A stretch of DNA of 64,000 nt from Nanobdellota archaeon (GTDB lineage: Archaea; Nanobdellota; Nanobdellia; SCGC-AAA011-G17; JACPNG01), in assembly GCA_038046345.1 (NCBI GenBank), contig JBBSWJ010000005.1:24784-88783 (forward strand). Direction: 5' to 3'. Below the pieces are notes generated by a model. The model was given only the letters and a program-made list of their open reading frames with translations. It was not told where the DNA came from and ran no database searches. The translations under genes were made by a program, and so were the position numbers. Below, piece after piece: positions 14,052 to 53,902 of the stretch (within the stretch, counting starts at the first letter, position 1; each line of letters opens with the position of its first letter).

Positions 14052-14304
14052 AGTATAAGTTAAATTAGATTTTTATATAAAGTTTGCTAGGCACCAACTC
14101 AAATTGAATATAACTTAGGCGATTAAACAAATATTTATCTGCTTTATAGCATAATATTGCAAAAAAAGCAGTTACGCAAAGTTTTCAACTATTATAACCC
14201 GAATTTTTAATGAAAATTTTTTAAAAACTCTACATGTAATAATTTAAAACTAACTCTAAAAATAAATCAATCTAATAAAAAAAGTGATATCATGTATATT
14301 GTGT

Positions 14305-17290
14305 GTAAAATGGTCTCGAGCTATTGGAAAATGCAGGCTTAATTTCTCGTTGCCTTGAAACTTACACCCCACTCCCATCAAACAGATCTTCTATCTGTGC
14401 TCTCCTTCTCTTTTCAAGGTGGGTTTCGTCCTTAGATGCTTTCAGGACTTATCCCACAAGGCGTAGCTGCCCGGCCTGCCTTGTCAGACAACCGGTACAC
14501 CAGAGGCCTCGAATCCTCGTTCCTCTCGTACTAAAGGATCCTTCCCCTCAGAAGATAAACAAATCCAGTAGATATCATACAAACTGTCTCACAACGTTCT
14601 TAACCCAGCTCACGATCCCTTTTAATAAGTGAACACCTTCACCCTTGGCCGCAAGCAGTACGTGGAAACTGTTAATTTCGACATACCATGCTCTTTTCCG
14701 CGCATTTCTGCACGACCACTCTACGATACAAGAATCTAATCTTTGTATCCGGATAGGAAGAGCCGACATCGAGGTAGCAAGCAGCGCCGTCGATAAACTC
14801 GGAATCAATTTATTGATCCTTTGAGCTCTTAGGCGCTACAACTCAATTATGCCCGAGATAGCTTTTCTGTCATGTCTAGCCCCCATCAATGAGGACATAG
14901 AAGTTCGCTAGGCCATACTTTCGTACCTGAATCCCGTATTGTTTGGAATCCAGTCAAGCCAGCTTTTGCCCTTGCACTCCACAGAGAATTTCTAAATCTC
15001 TTGAGCTGACCTTTGGGCCCTACTGATATCCTTTCAGCAGGGTCCCGCCCCAGGCAAACTATCCGCCAGTAGTTGTCTTTCATTACTGAAGTAAGTAATA
15101 TAGAATACAGAGGGTAGTATCTCACTTTTGCCTAAACGTACACTGGCGTGCACGCATCAACAGCTCCTACCTATTCTTAACACCATACTCCATACCACAG
15201 CTACAAGCTATAGTAAAGTTCTACGGGGTCTTCGCTTCCCACTGGAATTCTCTGGCCTTTGCACCAGAATAGTGTGTTCGGGAGGTTCTACGTAAAGACA
15301 GTGGATACCTCGTTACGCCATTCATGCAAGTCGTCAATCAAACGACAAGGTATTACGCTACCTTAAGAGAATTATAGTTATTCCCGCCGTTTACACGCTC
15401 TTAGCCCCCTTGAAAAGGAGTTTAAAGTACATGCACTGGGCAGACGTCACCTCCTATACAAACCATTACTGGCTAGCAGGAAGTTTCGTTTTTGTTAAAC
15501 AGTCGGGCATCCTTAGTTATTGAATCCTGTACTCGCAACTAAAAGCTACAAGCGCAGGAACCCCTTATGCCGAAGTCACAGGGCCAATATTGCCGATTTC
15601 CTTTACGTAAATTACCCCTCTCATACCTTAGGCTACTAACCCAGGGCACCTGTGCTGGTTCTGGATACGGTTATTTATGATCCTTCCATATTGTTTTTTC
15701 ACGGGCTCAAGGCATCTACCCAATCAACATACATTGACTATTCTCAGCTTTTCTCAGGTTCTCATCATGACAATTCTCCCCTGACATATGCTAATTAACA
15801 ACCATGTCTATGATTGTGGGTATAGCCCAAAGCAGCAACAATAAGGCTTTCGTCGCCGAATGTACATAAATAGTACTGGAATATTAACCAGTTTGCCTCT
15901 TCCCGCACGTCAATTTATGAGTGCAGTTAGGTCCGACTAACTCTTAGCTGAACTGCAGTGCTAAGAAAACCTTGCCCTTTCGGTATTAGAGAGTCTCACT
16001 CTATATAGGTCCTACTACCACCGGGATTCTTATTCGTACACGGTCCATTTACTTTCACAAGTATACTTCCATCCATGCACGACACCTATCTACCACCTTG
16101 CTTTACAGCAAGTCTGAAGTATCGGTCGTCAGTTTAGCCCCGTTAATTTTCAGGGCATAATACCTTGACGGGTGAGCTATTACGCTTTCTTTAGAGGATG
16201 GCTGCTTCTAAGCCAACCTCCCCGCTGTCTCTGGTATTACACACCATTCACCCTTTCACACTTAACTGACAGTTAGGGACCTTAACTTCAGGCTGGGATG
16301 TTCCCCTTTTGGGACACACGCTTACCGCGCGCCCCTGCTTCCCGCCTTCTACGACGCATTGACATTTGGAGTTGAACAAGAGTGAGAGGAATTTCTTCCC
16401 TTAACATTCTAATCCGTAGCTCTACAACCAATGCTATCTCGAGCGAGACTATTCTGCGGCATATTTCGATAGGAACAGGCTATTAGCAAACTCGATTGGC
16501 TTTTCACCCCTAATCCCAAATCATAAGAGCACATGCACGTAGCACCTCTTCAGGCCTCCACCTCGTATCACCAAGGCTTCACCTTGCTCAGGATTAGATC
16601 GTCTGCTTTCCGGTCAGACCCCCATGACTTAAGGCGCTTTCACACCTCGCTCCTCGCAAGCTGCGAGCATTTGCTTTCGCTCAGCATTCGTACTAAAAGT
16701 ACTTACGCTCGCCATGAAGATCAACTCCCCGGCCCGTTATTCAAAACGTACGGTGCAACTCATGCTGCACCATTCTATAACCGTAAGGTTTCAGGAACTT
16801 TTCACACCCTATCAGAGGTACTTTTCAATGTTCCATCACTGTACTATTTGCTATCGGACTTAAAACATATTTAGCCTTAGAAGTTGATGCCTCCTAAATT
16901 CCTGCTCAATATCCAATGAACAGTACTATGGATACTTGTAAATCTTTCACGATTATCCTACGGGGCTATCACCCTGTGTCGCATACCATTCCAGATAACT
17001 TTAGATAAACATGTTAAGATGAAAAACAAGTCCAAACACCACATGTTGCTTCTTTTTCAAGAAGTAATTCGGTTTAGGCTATACGGATTTCGCTCGCTGT
17101 TACTCACCGCATCTCAATTGATTTCTTTTCCTGCGGGTACTAAGACGCTTCAGTTCCCCGCGTTATACATCCTCTCGGATTTAATAGGAAGTCCTATTCG
17201 GGAATCATTGGTTCGTAGGCTGCATGCGCCTCGCCAATGCATTTCGTAGCTTGCCACGCCCTTCATCTTTGTTTTTAAGCCGAATCATCC
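14305..17290 (-). rRNA. rrl: 23S ribosomal RNA (ends approximate)
   Basis: About 3 kb with no long ORFs. The conserved 3'-region motif CCTGAAAGCATCTAAG is present as its reverse complement near 14440; the 5' GGATGC(A)TTGGC-like motif near 17240. Confidence 0.85.
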
Positions 17291-17440
17291 ACCTTACGGC
17301 GTAATGACCTATAATTACACACAATACCTATACACGATATCATTAAATGAATATTTCATCTGTCCTAAGACTATGATATCCTTCACCCACAACAATTCAG
17401 TTTGTGAGTTGCACTATTTCATTAAAAAATGAATATGATA

Positions 17441-17548
17441 TGGACCCGTCGGGAAAATCGACGATCCAAGATGTCTAATGCAAATCGTTTTCGAACCCGA
17501 GGCCCCTACCTTGCAAGGGTAATGCTCTACCAGCTGAGCTACGGGCCC
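17441..17548 (-). tRNA. tRNA-Ala (anticodon UGC) with a 35-nt intron at non-canonical position 59/60
   Basis: Acceptor stem GGGCCCG/CGGGTCC includes the G3:U70 Ala identity pair. Anticodon loop is CTTGCAA. T-stem TCGGG/CCCGA is interrupted by a 35-nt insert that forms a BHB; splicing yields T-loop UUCGAAU. Located in the 16S-23S spacer. Confidence 0.85.
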
Positions 17549-17605
17549 AAACAATTGGATTGACTGTACGAGATTAATTTCAGTGATTAGAATAGTAAAA
17601 AAAAT

Positions 17606-19140
<1,535 letters not shown>

Positions 19141-43325: not shown

Positions 43326-43900
43326 GAGTAGTAATAGCTGGTGGGCCATATTGTGGTAAAACAACAGTAATAAATGAATTAAGCACACAGGGCTTTAGGA
43401 CAATAAACGAAGCAACAACGGAGATTATTAAAAAGGAACAAGAAGCAGGTAATAACGAACCATGGTTAGAAAGAGAAAAATTTCAGAAAAAAATCATGGA
43501 TCTTCAAATTCAACAGTTTAATTCAGCAAAAAATAATGTAATTACTTTTTATGATCGGGGTTTAGTTGATGGATTAGCATACTATCATTTAGATGGCATT
43601 GACCCACCAAAAGAACTAACAGAACATGCCTCAAAAAAAAGGTATAATCTTGTTTTCATTCCGGATCTTATTGAAGGATTCAAACCTGACAAAACTCGTG
43701 GTGAATCACTTGAAGAACGTAAGCTAGTTCATGAGCTTATCAGAAAATGTTATTCTGATCATGGTTATAATGTAATTAATATACCAAGCATAAGCGTTTC
43801 TGAACGTGTATTGTTTATTAAAAAGAAGATTAGCGAGCATAAACTACTTTTAAAAGATAATATACGCCGAGAGCAGGATTTGAACCTGCATATCCGTTAG
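43310..43900 (+). CDS. AAA_28-type P-loop ATPase/kinase (NadR-C-terminal-like)
   Basis: Walker A IAGGPYCGKTT. The track ORF starts at 43232; the likely start is the Met at 43310. The 3' end overlaps tRNA-Ser by 36 nt. Confidence 0.6.
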   Translation: MDNQIRVVIAGGPYCGKTTVINELSTQGFRTINEATTEIIKKEQEAGNNEPWLEREKFQKKIMDLQIQQFNSAKNNVITFYDRGLVDGLAYYHLDGIDPPKELTEHASKKRYNLVFIPDLIEGFKPDKTRGESLEERKLVHELIRKCYSDHGYNVINIPSISVSERVLFIKKKISEHKLLLKDNIRREQDLNLHIR

Positions 43901-43960
43901 GAAACAAGCTTACTGGTATAATTTCCAGGCTTGCGCAATACCAAGTTATGCGATCTCGGC
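43865..43960 (-). tRNA. tRNA-Ser (anticodon GGA), class II with long variable arm, 12-nt intron at 37/38
   Basis: Acceptor GCCGAGA/TCTCGGC with discriminator G73. 3-bp D-stem. Anticodon loop CUGGAAA. CUGG pairs with intron CCAG to form the BHB central helix. 15-nt variable arm. T-arm GCAGG-TTCAAAT-CCTGC. Confidence 0.8.
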
Positions 43961-51115: not shown

Positions 51116-53902
51116 TTATAATTCTTTTATACCCTTTCTATCTTTTATTTGTTTTCTTATTTTATCTTGCAATGATTCAGGCAGCTTCTCATACATTTGG
51201 TCTACCACAAAATAGCTACCCCGGCCACCAGTAGCGGATCTTAAGTCGCTGCTTAATCCAAACATTTCACCAACAGGTAGCTTGCATTTAACGGTCATTT
51301 GTACTCCCTCTTGTTGCACTTCTAACAATTGCCCTCTTTTATTTTGTATTAATTTAGATACATCTCCTAAATAATCACTAGGCGCTCCAATATGTAATTC
51401 CTGTACTGGCTCATAAATATATGGTTTTCCTGTTAGTATAGCCTCTCTTATCCCCTCTCTTACAGCGGGGTATACCTGGGCTGGCCCACGATGTATTGCA
51501 TCTTCATGTAATTTCATATCAGTAACTCTTACTTTCATCTTCATTGTTGGTTCTTTTGCAAGTATTCCAGCATCGCAAACCTGTTCAAAACCATCTATTA
51601 CTAATTCTATTACTTCACCTATCTGAACTATACCACGAGTGTCATCAACTAATAAGTTTCCCTTGTATATATCCCTATATTTCTTCGCGTCTTTTAAGAT
51701 AACTCCTTTCTCTTCTAATTTTTTAAATGTATCAACATCCTTTTTTTTAAGCCTGCCATCAGGTATTTCTCCGTCCCTCATTAATTGATAAATCTCATCT
51801 TCTAAAGGTTCAACAATAAAAAAGAATTTATTATGTTTATTTGGGGATTTTCCTTCTTTTTCTTCAGATACCTTGGTTACCGCTTCTCTGTACACAACAA
51901 TAGGCGGGCTTGTCCTTACTTGCAAACCTTTTTCTGTTTTTATCCTATTCTCAATAACTTCTAAATGTAGTTCGCCCATTCCAGAAATTAAGTTTTCTCC
52001 TGTCTCCTCATTAATTTCGATTGTTATTGTTGGATCCTCTTTGTTTACTTGCTTTAGTACTTCAACAAGTTTTGGCAAGTCAGCAGGAGATGTTGCTTCA
52101 ATACTTTTTGTAACAACCGGGTCAAATATATGTTTTATTGCTTCAAACGGTTCCATTTCTTCAGATGCAATTGTCTCTCCAGCAAACACATTTTTTAACC
52201 CCACTAAACCTACAATATTACCAGCAACTGCTTTTTCAACGGTTACTCTTTGAGCTCCTTTGTATATCGATACCTGTTGTATTCTAATCTTTCTTTTTGC
52301 ATTGATCATATATGCATCATCGCCCTGTCTTACAGTTCCAGAGAATAATCTACCAGCCGTTACTTCTCCTGCATGTTTATCAATAACAATTTTTGTTGCT
52401 ACAAAAGCAGTCGGACCATTAGGATTACAGTTTACTAATGACTTTCCAATTTCAGAATCTAAATCTCCATGCCATATTTTTGGCACTCTGTATTTCTGAG
52501 CGTCTACAGGGTTTTTATGGTGTGCTATTACCATCTCGAGGACAACTTCATGCAATGGCGCTTTTTTTGCTATACCCTTCCATTCATCATTTTCATATGC
52601 TTTTATAACATCTTTAAAGCTCAGCCCATTTCTTAGCATATAAGGAGCAGATAACGCCCAATTATGAAATGCAGATCCAAATGCTACACTCCCATCTTTA
52701 ACATGAACTAACCATTTTTCTTTAAATTCTTCTGGGGCTACACTCTGTATGAACTTGTTTATCTCAGTTATTATTTTCACAAATCTTTCTTGCATTGCTT
52801 CAGGTGTTAGTTTTACTTCTTTTATTAAACGATCAACTTTGTTTATGAATAATACTGGCTTGACTCTTTCTCTTAACGCTTGACGCAACACGGTTTCTGT
52901 TTGAGGCATTATACCTTCTACTGCATCACATAATACTATTGCCCCGTCTACAGCTCTCATCGCTCTTGTTACATCTCCTCCAAAGTCTACATGCCCGGGC
53001 GTGTCAATTAGATTTATTAGAAAATCTTTTCCATTAATTACGTGAACCATAGATACATTTGCTGAATCAATTGTGATCCCGCGTTCTTGTTCATCTGCGT
53101 GGAAATCCAAAGCTAATTGTTTTCCAGCTAACTCTTGTGACATCATCCCGGCTCCTGCCAATAAATTATCTGAGAATGTTGTATTATGGATCACCATTCC
53201 CTCAGCAACAAAATTATGATTGTCTGCAACTGTAAAATCGTATACCATATCTTTCTGTGTTATCTCTTTTGAATTAACCTCACAGTACATAATATCTTCA
53301 CTTAATATTTTATTCTCTTGGATTAATATTTGTCCATTATTCTCTATTTTTTCTTTATAACCACTTAATGAGATTGATATTGCATCTTTTTGGTGCGGCC
53401 AACTTTTCATGCAAACTACAAGATCCTTCAATTCTAATTCTCTTGCTTCTTTATAACAAAAGTCACGTGCGAGCCTATCCAAAACTAAATAACGATGTTC
53501 TGGTGTTGTTTCAATTGAGCTGCCATTTTTTAATTTTATTTTTATTAGTTCACCGCCAGTTAATTTCCAAGCAAGGCTGATTAGTTTCTTTTCTATTTTC
53601 CCTGAATCTTTATTTAATGATAATACCTTAACACATTGGCTTGTAACATCATAAACAACATGACCATTCTTTTTTTCAAATAGTTTTCCATTTTTTATGA
53701 TCTTATCAAATAGCTTCTCTGCCTGTATAACTGAGCTATCACCTAAAATAATTCTAGACTCACCAGAAATACATTTCCCATGATATCGTTCTATGAAGGG
53801 TTAACTCGATAGAAAATCGATATGGGCGCATATAGCTATATTTCTGATTTGTTCCGGTTCATTCATTAATTTAACAACTTTTTCTGCTATCTTATCCGCC
53901 AT
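51116..53902 (-). CDS. fusA: translation elongation factor aEF-2, interrupted by a BHB intron (53783..53815) and an intein (53183..53773)
   Basis: N-extein MADKIAEKVVKLMNEPEQIRNIAICAHID[intron]HGK[intein]TTFSDNLLAGAGM ... through to the C-terminal domains. The diphthamide-target motif HEDAIHRGPAQ is present. The track ORF (51116..53482) misses the N-terminus because of the in-frame TAA inside the intron. Confidence 0.85.
53183..53773 (-). other. mini-intein (197 aa) inserted in the aEF-2 P-loop between GHK and TT
   Basis: Starts with Cys (CISGESRIILGDS, block A), has TPEHRYLV (block B), ends VYDFTVADNHNFVAEGMVIHN, followed by the +1 Thr. No LAGLIDADG motifs. Confidence 0.8.
53783..53815 (-). 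other. 33-nt bulge-helix-bulge (BHB) intron in the aEF-2 mRNA
   Basis: In-frame insert TTTCTATCGAGTTAACCCTTCATAGAACGATAT (contains TAA). Folds as h CCCAU/AUGGG, H AUCG/CGAU, two 3-nt bulges AU|U and AU|C, and h' UUCUAU/AUAGAA. Cutting after the second bulge nucleotide gives CAUAUCGAU-CAUGGG, which encodes HIDHG. Confidence 0.7.

Follow-up and report, generated by a model that had tools for sequence, protein, structure and literature searches.

A predicted bulge-helix-bulge intron at position 59/60 of the rRNA-spacer tRNA-Ala(UGC) gene in a Woesearchaeota-like archaeon

Introduction

In the archaeon ARMAN-2 (Ca. Micrarchaeum acidiphilum), the precursor of tRNA-Cys(GCA) has a 13-nucleotide (nt) intron of the hBH form at position 59/60 that is cleaved in vitro by the organism's own epsilon2 endonuclease (Fujishima et al. 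2011, PMC3239211), and the precursor of tRNA-Pro(GGG) has introns at 53/54 and 59/60 (PMC3239211). Kaneta et al. (PMC5829648) describe DPANN lineages that have an alpha4 EndA endonuclease carrying an extra L3 loop together with more disrupted tRNA genes, and in their DPANN set, which included a Woesearchaeota genome, some tRNA complements could not be completed by prediction. Among the non-canonical intron positions, 59/60 is an established one, in DPANN archaea too. Here we examine a stretch of 64 kb (contig JBBSWJ010000005.1; this whole stretch of 64,000 nt is called the window) in which the tRNA-Ala(UGC) gene located in the spacer of the rRNA operon is interrupted by 35 nt at that position. 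As in ARMAN-2, the host is a DPANN archaeon, the intron falls between 59 and 60 in the T-loop, and the boundary is of the bulge-helix-bulge (BHB) type. The ARMAN-2 introns, however, are in Cys and Pro tRNAs and were reported from one genome, whereas this one is in an Ala tRNA of the rRNA spacer in a Woesearchaeota-like lineage and is conserved across a clade. Also, the ARMAN-2 Cys intron is a 13-nt relaxed hBH, while the one in the window has 35 nt, both bulges, and an inner helix, making a near-strict hBHBh' with one U.U pair.

Non-canonical and multiple tRNA introns reportedly occur in Thermoproteales and other Crenarchaeota. Crenarchaeal rRNA operons are not known to have a spacer tRNA. The crenarchaeal introns outside 37/38 that depend on the endonuclease are summarized in PMC4033280. 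They are like the present case in being found by cloverleaf restoration and in having the T-loop as a recurrent site, but their hosts are hyperthermophiles of the TACK group with an (alpha-beta)2 EndA, and they appear recently gained and transposed, whereas the intron in the window looks anciently fixed at one gene.

The canonical intron at 37/38 has the strict 3-4-3 hBHBh' structure, in which nucleotides of the 5' exon pair with the 3' end of the intron over 4 bp, two 3-nt bulges flank that helix, and the cut follows the second bulge nucleotide. The tRNA-Ala intron shares this plan, and the same enzymes are presumed for it; the difference is that the canonical motif uses the anticodon loop and stem, while here the T-loop is used, the T-stem is the outer helix, and one pair is not Watson-Crick. 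As for the operon, EndA is reported to process the BHB motifs of the rRNA processing stems in the 16S-tRNA-Ala-23S operons of Euryarchaeota, for example Haloferax and methanogens (PMC7714728). The layout in the window is the same, with tRNA-Ala(UGC) in the spacer and a long 16S processing stem. The spacer tRNA-Ala of those euryarchaeal operons is not known to be interrupted. Among the papers searched, none was found to describe this spacer tRNA-Ala intron or its conservation across a clade.

Results

The interrupted tRNA-Ala gene

We read the locus, with high confidence, as the spacer tRNA-Ala(UGC) gene of a 16S-tRNA-23S operon in an AT-rich, Woesearchaeota-like DPANN host, carrying a 35-nt BHB-type intron at 59/60. 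The coding strand is the minus strand (an earlier sequence-only reading of this DNA gave no strand), and the gene spans 108 nt including the intron. From 17548 to 17441 the sequence, read directly in the 5' to 3' direction, is GGGCCCG UA GCUC AGCUGGUA GAGC A UUACC CUUGCAA GGUAG GGGCC UCGGG UUCGAA-[AACGAUUUGCAUUAGACAUCUUGGAUCGUCGAUUU]-U CCCGA CGGGUCC A, with the insert in the inner brackets. The acceptor stem, the G3:U70 pair, A73, the D-arm, and the anticodon arm are all canonical. With a D-loop of 8 nt and a variable loop of 5 nt, the 5' part counts exactly 59 nt, and therefore the break is at 59/60, in the non-canonical position class.

ARAGORN calls zero tRNAs over the whole window and leaves this precursor uncalled even with its intron option; it handles introns of the anticodon loop only. 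The Rfam tRNA match covers just 17492-17548 with 36.1 bits, and the T-arm is skipped in the alignment. Deletion of the 35 nt gives a sequence of 73 nt that restores the canonical cloverleaf and is called tRNA-Ala(tgc) by ARAGORN. The 14-nt 3' exon, UCCCGACGGGUCCA, occurs a single time in the 64 kb, 35 nt past the 5' exon, where it is perfectly complementary to the 5' strands of the T-stem and acceptor stem; allowing up to 2 mismatches, it has zero matches in 100 dinucleotide shuffles. The sequence-only reading had put a tRNA-Ala(UGC) in an rRNA spacer, with canonical acceptor and anticodon arms including G3:U70 and a 35-nt insert at 59/60, and all of this is borne out, the arms by direct reading, the insert by the 59-nt count, and the identity by the ARAGORN call of the spliced form and the Rfam matches to the small subunit (SSU) and large subunit (LSU) rRNA on the flanks (Table 1).

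Relatives with the same insert

A scan of one genome per species, covering 185,579 species, was made with a pattern holding only exon features and a gap: GGGC..GUAGCUCAG ... AGAGC ... UUGC ... GGGUUC, a gap of 16-46 nt, and CCC.....GUCCA. It returned 47 loci, nearly all labeled Woesearchaeota, Nanoarchaeota, or Nanoarchaeia; these near-exclusive DPANN labels are consistent with the spacer tRNA-Ala of Euryarchaeota being uninterrupted. A few loci are labeled Methanosarcinales, Parcubacteria, or Gammaproteobacteria, and we take those labels to be wrong because the tRNAs and introns match loci labeled Woesearchaeota (L004 resembles L016, while L018 and L030 resemble L029). The tRNA lies between SSU and LSU in 47/47, and in 47/47 the spliced form is recognized by ARAGORN as tRNA-Ala(tgc). 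The same pattern finds 118 further loci in metagenome contigs from many projects. Pooling gives 95 distinct sequences, of which 2 are false positives (ordinary tRNAs plus a chance anchor) and 93 are genuine; the counts that follow are over all 95.

Every one of the 93 genuine distinct spacer tRNA-Ala genes, from genomes and metagenomes of Woesearchaeota/Nanoarchaeota (DPANN), has an insert at the same place, with a length of 12-42 nt. The clade is a deep one. The rRNAs of the 47 loci have about 68-87% identity to those of the window, the closest being L019, a Woesearchaeota metagenome-assembled genome with SSU identity of 80-84%. An exact search of metagenome contigs with the 5' exon of the window, for close relatives and intron-less alleles, gave 0 matches, and the contigs found by way of the gene beside the LSU stop within the rRNA operon, short of the tRNA.

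Removal of the insert leaves UUCAAAU in 45, UUCGAAU in 43, and UUCRAUU in 6 of the sequences. The central helix between the T-loop and the 3' end of the insert has 4/4 pairs in 84/95. At position 57 and its partner in the intron, there is a clear compensatory pattern, with A-U in 43, G-C in 38, G.U in 7, and non-pairs in 7, and the partner of U54 is A in 90/95. The three nucleotides following U54-R57 are AAA in 61/95. The 3' bulge ends in U, which is the retained position 60, in 94/95, with a false positive (L128) as the exception; its length is 3 nt in 85/95 and 4 nt in 10/95. Combining 4/4 pairs with 3-nt bulges, 75/95 support the 59/60 register. A 4-nt 3' bulge of GAGU or UAGU after a perfect UUCG/CGAA helix is seen in L001, L019, L022, L027, L044, and others.

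The intron interiors are mutually unrelated in sequence. Among 45 distinct inserts from the genome loci and the window, 22 have an inner helix of at least 4 contiguous bp abutting the 5' bulge, versus 2.9% after shuffling of the interiors. Conservation and covariation are directly observed across the deep clade, as are the sequence, the fold, and exon restoration at the locus itself. By this comparison, the T-loop insert is conserved and fixed in position in the spacer tRNA-Ala of the clade, and it appears to be constrained only where it pairs with the T-loop.

Fold of the boundary

In the window, the central helix sets U54 U55 C56 G57 against CGAU at intron nt 30-33, giving U.U, U-A, C-G, and G-C, or 3/4 Watson-Crick. 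The bulges A58 A59/A(intron 1) and U34 U35/U60 (the slash marking the predicted cut) are on opposite strands across this 4-bp helix, which is the hBHBh' arrangement. The outer helix is the T-stem of 5 bp, and the inner helix is A2-G9 with U22-U29 of the intron, 8 bp including two or three G.U. Strictly, the motif is a slightly relaxed hBHBh' on account of the one U.U. This is the register given by the sequence-only reading (AA/A, UU/U, 3-nt bulges, and a 4-bp helix with 3 Watson-Crick pairs plus U-U), and reading the motif again gives the same. A cut after the second bulge nucleotide would produce the junction GGGUUCGAA^UCCCGACGGG and the mature T-loop U54 U55 C56 G57 A58 A59/U60, or UUCGAAU; the same T-loop had been predicted in the earlier reading, and it agrees with the family consensus.

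Other classes of insert were considered. A group I or group II intron was rejected, as the insert is 35 nt versus a catalytic core of typically >200 nt, and Rfam has no match besides the tRNA in 17300-17620, even at E ≤ 10. A box C/D guide RNA, as in the pre-tRNA-Trp of Euryarchaeota, was rejected as well, since AACGAUUUGCAUUAGACAUCUUGGAUCGUCGAUUU has no C box (RUGAUGA) or D box (CUGA); the lack of conservation of intron interiors among the relatives is another point against it.

Points against the intron reading, and rival explanations

Several observations weigh against our reading. We infer splicing itself, the cleavage positions, and the enzymes from sequence, from comparison, and from the established BHB splicing of archaea, and no gene for EndA or RtcB was found in the window by Pfam scans of ~40 open reading frames (ORFs) and by tblastn with an approximate M. 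jannaschii EndA sequence as query. In the minimum free energy (MFE) fold by RNAfold, the cloverleaf and the inner helix form, and a 7x7 internal loop takes the place of the central helix and its bulges, which is expected because that helix is a bulged one of 4 bp with a mismatch. Generic 3-4-3 BHB shapes number ~1000 in the window against ~1300 in dinucleotide shuffles, so in this AT-rich window the shape is no better than chance, and it is exon restoration, together with conservation in the relatives, that makes the tRNA-Ala insert significant. The U.U mismatch in the central helix of the window is itself unfavorable, as a U opposite U54 occurs in only 3/95, the window being one. A competing register, U55-A58 with UCGA, has 4 Watson-Crick pairs and a 9-nt T-loop by the cleavage rule. 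Finally, the simple rule of cutting after nucleotide 2 fails the 10/95 sequences with a 4-nt 3' bulge, which would get an 8-nt T-loop by it, and therefore their cleavage site must be set differently.

The last 2 points bear on the idea that the intron is spliced but at a junction other than 59/60, either in the U55-A58/UCGA register or shifted by one nucleotide. Its helix of 4 Watson-Crick pairs compares well with 3 plus U.U, and the rule is evidently not rigid, given the relatives with 4-nt 3' bulges, yet we consider this idea very unlikely. The U55-A58/UCGA register was rejected because its 9-nt T-loop disagrees with the family consensus, and shifts in general give T-loops of 8-9 nt, or else UUCGAAA or UUCGAUU. 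Only a junction at 59/60 gives a 7-nt loop ending in U60, and U60 is kept in 93/93 genuine relatives; the 75/95 sequences with full pairing and 3-nt bulges also back that register.

That the insert might be retained, in a tRNA with an enlarged T-arm or in a decaying pseudogene backed by another tRNA-Ala gene, would fit with the gene being uncalled by ARAGORN, with the Rfam match skipping the T-arm, and with the imperfect central helix in the window. This is extremely unlikely, as sequestered U54-G57 would abolish the interaction of the T-loop with the D-loop, whereas both exons are perfectly canonical down to the G3:U70 identity pair, and the interrupted architecture is kept in 93 distinct sequences despite rRNAs that have just about 70-84% identity to those of the window. 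The covariation preserves the splicing motif and no alternative T-arm, unlike in a pseudogene. We give almost no credence to an assembly artefact or a recent mobile-element insertion specific to this contig. The sequence does come from a metagenome assembly, and the exact search with the 5' exon came back empty, but 47 species genomes and 118 metagenome contigs of many projects carry an insert at this very site, the 35 nt have no terminal repeats or coding capacity, and other introns of this genome recur in independent assemblies, namely the LSU introns in L048 and the one in aEF-2.

Proposed processing

In the precursor, UUCG of the T-loop would be held by CGAU of the intron 3' end in the 4-bp helix, with the T-stem on one side, the 8-bp intron hairpin on the other, and one 3-nt bulge per strand. 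The T-loop would be unable to form while sequestered, so the L-shape could not form until splicing. EndA would recognize the T-stem, the UUCG/CGAU helix, and the intron hairpin, and would cut after the second nucleotide of each bulge, between 17490 and 17489 and between 17455 and 17454. An RtcB-type ligase would then join A59 to U60, giving the 73-nt tRNA, and RNase P, RNase Z, and the CCA-adding enzyme would finish the maturation.

By RNAduplex, the 16S flanks form a long processing stem of -33 kcal/mol that ends ~15 nt upstream of the tRNA; no BHB was made out in this stem. EndA would therefore be expected to act on the primary transcript at several places.

Table 1. Coordinates in the window of the tRNA-Ala gene, its predicted splicing motif, the flanking rRNA genes, and the candidate rRNA mini-introns
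Feature	Coordinates	Strand	Evidence or remark
tRNA-Ala(UGC) gene including intron	17441..17548	-	direct reading; partial Rfam tRNA match; spliced form called by ARAGORN
5' exon, positions 1-59 (acceptor 5' strand, D-arm, anticodon arm, variable loop, T-stem 5' strand, U54-A59)	17490..17548	-	
Anticodon UGC, positions 34-36	17513..17515	-	reading; ARAGORN (tgc)
35-nt predicted intron, AACGAUUUGCAUUAGACAUCUUGGAUCGUCGAUUU, between positions 59 and 60	17455..17489	-	same-site insert in 93 distinct relatives
3' exon, positions 60-73 (U60, CCCGA, CGGGUCC with U70, A73), without encoded CCA	17441..17454	-	
T-stem 5' strand UCGGG, outer helix h	17496..17500	-	
T-stem 3' strand CCCGA, outer helix h	17449..17453	-	
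Central helix 5' strand, T-loop U54 U55 C56 G57	17492..17495	-	H=TTCG/CGAT, 3/4 standard pairs
Central helix 3' strand, intron nt 30-33 CGAU	17457..17460	-	U33 opposite U54 is the single mismatch
5' bulge A58 A59/A(intron 1)	17489..17491	-	predicted 5' cleavage between 17490 and 17489; site from the BHB rule
3' bulge UU(intron 34, 35)/U60	17454..17456	-	predicted 3' cleavage between 17455 and 17454
Inner helix h' 5' strand, intron nt 2-9, ACGAUUUG	17481..17488	-	
Inner helix h' 3' strand, intron nt 22-29, UGGAUCGU	17461..17468	-	
Archaeal SSU rRNA gene, upstream of tRNA-Ala, same operon	17606..19140	-	Rfam RF01959, 1342 bits
Archaeal LSU rRNA gene, downstream of tRNA-Ala	14304..17316	-	Rfam RF02540, 2405 bits
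SSU-A, candidate mini-intron	18411..18380	-	32 nt; central helix UUAG/CUAA
SSU-B, candidate mini-intron	18372..18342	-	31 nt; central helix CCCG/CGGG
LSU-A, candidate mini-intron	14750..14719	-	32 nt; central helix CUAU/GUAG
LSU-B, candidate mini-intron	14705..14653	-	53 nt; central helix GCAG/CUGC

The host

The window has a GC content of 33% and an archaeal gene content, including ThrRS with the archaeal editing domain, aEF-1A, aIF2-gamma, aIF5B, aEF-2, and PheRS. The best matches to the EF-2 G-domain have 84-92% identity and are labeled Nanoarchaeota or Woesearchaeota, and genes identical to those of the window are found in assemblies from Hainich groundwater well H51, 0.1 µm fraction (DNA runs ERR3858113-5). 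By gene content and matches, the host would be an AT-rich groundwater DPANN archaeon resembling Woesearchaeota (GTDB Nanoarchaeota).

Candidate mini-introns in the rRNA genes

Two insertions lie within the universal GGAUUAGAUACCC..GUAGUCC motif of the 16S gene, and two more are in the 23S gene, close to the peptidyl-transferase region. Each has the geometry of the tRNA intron, and without it the sequence returns to the consensus of the relatives. The SSU pair is separated by a 7-nt micro-exon, ACCCGAG, and the LSU pair by a 13-nt micro-exon, UGGUCGUGCAGAA; the predicted junctions are GGAUUAGAU^ACCCGAG^UAGUCC for SSU and CCUAUCC^UGGUCGUGCAGAA^GCGGCC for LSU. In E. coli numbering, the SSU insertions are at about 793/794 and 800/801 of the universal GGAUUAGAUACCCnnGUAGUCC motif, at the site of the 806R primer. 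The MFE fold shows both SSU 3-4-3 motifs; it does not reproduce the proposed central helix of LSU-B.

In every relative sampled, the SSU-B and LSU-A insertions are absent, and most relatives also lack an insertion at the SSU-A and LSU-B sites. In 15 related loci, introns of ~86-140 nt with CUAAnU at their end occupy the SSU-A site, and the LSU-B site is occupied in two related loci, L023 and L040. Both LSU mini-introns are also in the independent assembly L048. At one LSU site (position ~1958, window numbering), blastn alignment breaks indicate inserts of ~150-720 nt in L005, L020, L021, L022, L025, L026, L027, L035, L043, and L044. These inserts, which the window does not have, are probably larger rRNA introns.

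The tRNA-Ala intron (17458-17480) and LSU-A (14720-14741) share AUUAGA(C)AUCUUG(G/U)AUCGU(C/A)GA, with 18/22 aligned positions matching and the start at nt 10 in both. The shuffle p for this pair is about 0.001, with 10 pairs tested. The LSU-A loop contains GAUUAGAU, which is identical to the exon of the 16S 790-loop. Intron transposition or coincidence could each account for the resemblance of the tRNA-Ala and LSU-A introns, which is only suggestive.

tRNA-Ser and the aEF-2 insert

A tRNA-Ser(GGA) gene with a long variable arm lies at 43865-43960 (minus strand) and is interrupted at 37/38 by 12 nt, in the context CUGG AA/A UUAUA CCAG UA/A. Its motif is relaxed, having the CUGG/CCAG helix without an inner helix; Rfam gives the gene 46 bits, and ARAGORN misses it.

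The aEF-2 gene (51116-53902, minus strand) has a 33-nt insert at 53815..53783 with an in-frame TAA that splits the P-loop codons as AHID/HGK. The frame reads ...ICAHID, then FLSS, a stop, and PFIERY, and then HGK followed by an intein. The MFE structure of the insert is a near-perfect BHB with outer helix CCCAU/AUGGG, central helix AUCG/CGAU, bulges AU/U and AU/C, and inner helix UUCUAU/AUAGAA; in the MFE the central helix is 5 bp long, and the reading frame is kept by the 4-bp AUCG/CGAU register alone. Excision restores AHIDHGK/C and an EF-2 of 917 aa with a mini-intein right after HGK, and the predicted mRNA junction is CAUAUCGAU^CAUGGGAAA. Contiguous aEF-2 homologs read ...AHI[DH]HGKC..., and the intein-less EF-2 of Woesearchaeota/Nanoarchaeota reads AHIDHGKTTFSDNLL. 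Four independent assemblies have the interrupted DNA in identical form. In another organism, from another sample, at 1491-1525 of L174, a homolog with 57% identity to this EF-2 has a different, frame-shifting, BHB-like insert of 35 nt at the same codon boundary. A scan of the window for BHBs whose removal restores an ORF gave 99 loose candidates, mostly noise, with protein homology backing aEF-2 alone. The aEF-2 insert is a candidate for an obligatory endonuclease-spliced mRNA intron.

The mini-intein of ~196 aa (CISGES...VIHN/TT) occupies residues 33-228 of the spliced aEF-2, in the P-loop at GK/TT (51116-53782, minus strand), and has no match to a homing-endonuclease domain. Similar intein-bearing N-termini of EF-2 are found in other archaea, one of them labeled Halobacteriales.

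Discussion

The tRNA-Ala insert is real, but both its kind and its position are already known among archaeal introns, and as such it is no surprise. More unusual are the candidate introns found with it. A 2023 review lists cbf5 and HVO_1309 as the only archaeal mRNAs spliced by the endonuclease (PMC10485636), and the aEF-2 mRNA would, if its intron is spliced, be about the third and the first for an essential translation factor. The rRNA mini-introns have a practical side, as the two in the 16S gene split the sequence to which the widely used 806R primer binds. Practical too is the failure of the gene finders on tRNA-Ala, which ARAGORN misses and Rfam reports as a truncated match; genomes of this clade can therefore seem to be without tRNA-Ala(UGC).

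Taken over the genome, the 3-4-3 geometry is found, as candidates, in the spacer tRNA-Ala, a tRNA-Ser, four rRNA mini-introns, and the 33-nt insert in the aEF-2 mRNA. One might suppose that EndA-dependent splicing has spread through the core translation apparatus of the lineage, with the tRNA-Ala intron as one piece of it, perhaps kept to tie tRNA-Ala maturation to EndA-dependent rRNA processing, and perhaps having seeded at least one rRNA intron by transposition. We regard that broader scheme as unlikely and offer it tentatively.

From its distribution, the tRNA-Ala intron looks like an old, vertically inherited feature of the clade. A non-canonical intron fixed at one site across a diverged clade contrasts with the picture of recent gain by transposition in Thermoproteales, and the 93 distinct sequences are a clean data set on what a T-loop BHB substrate must conserve.

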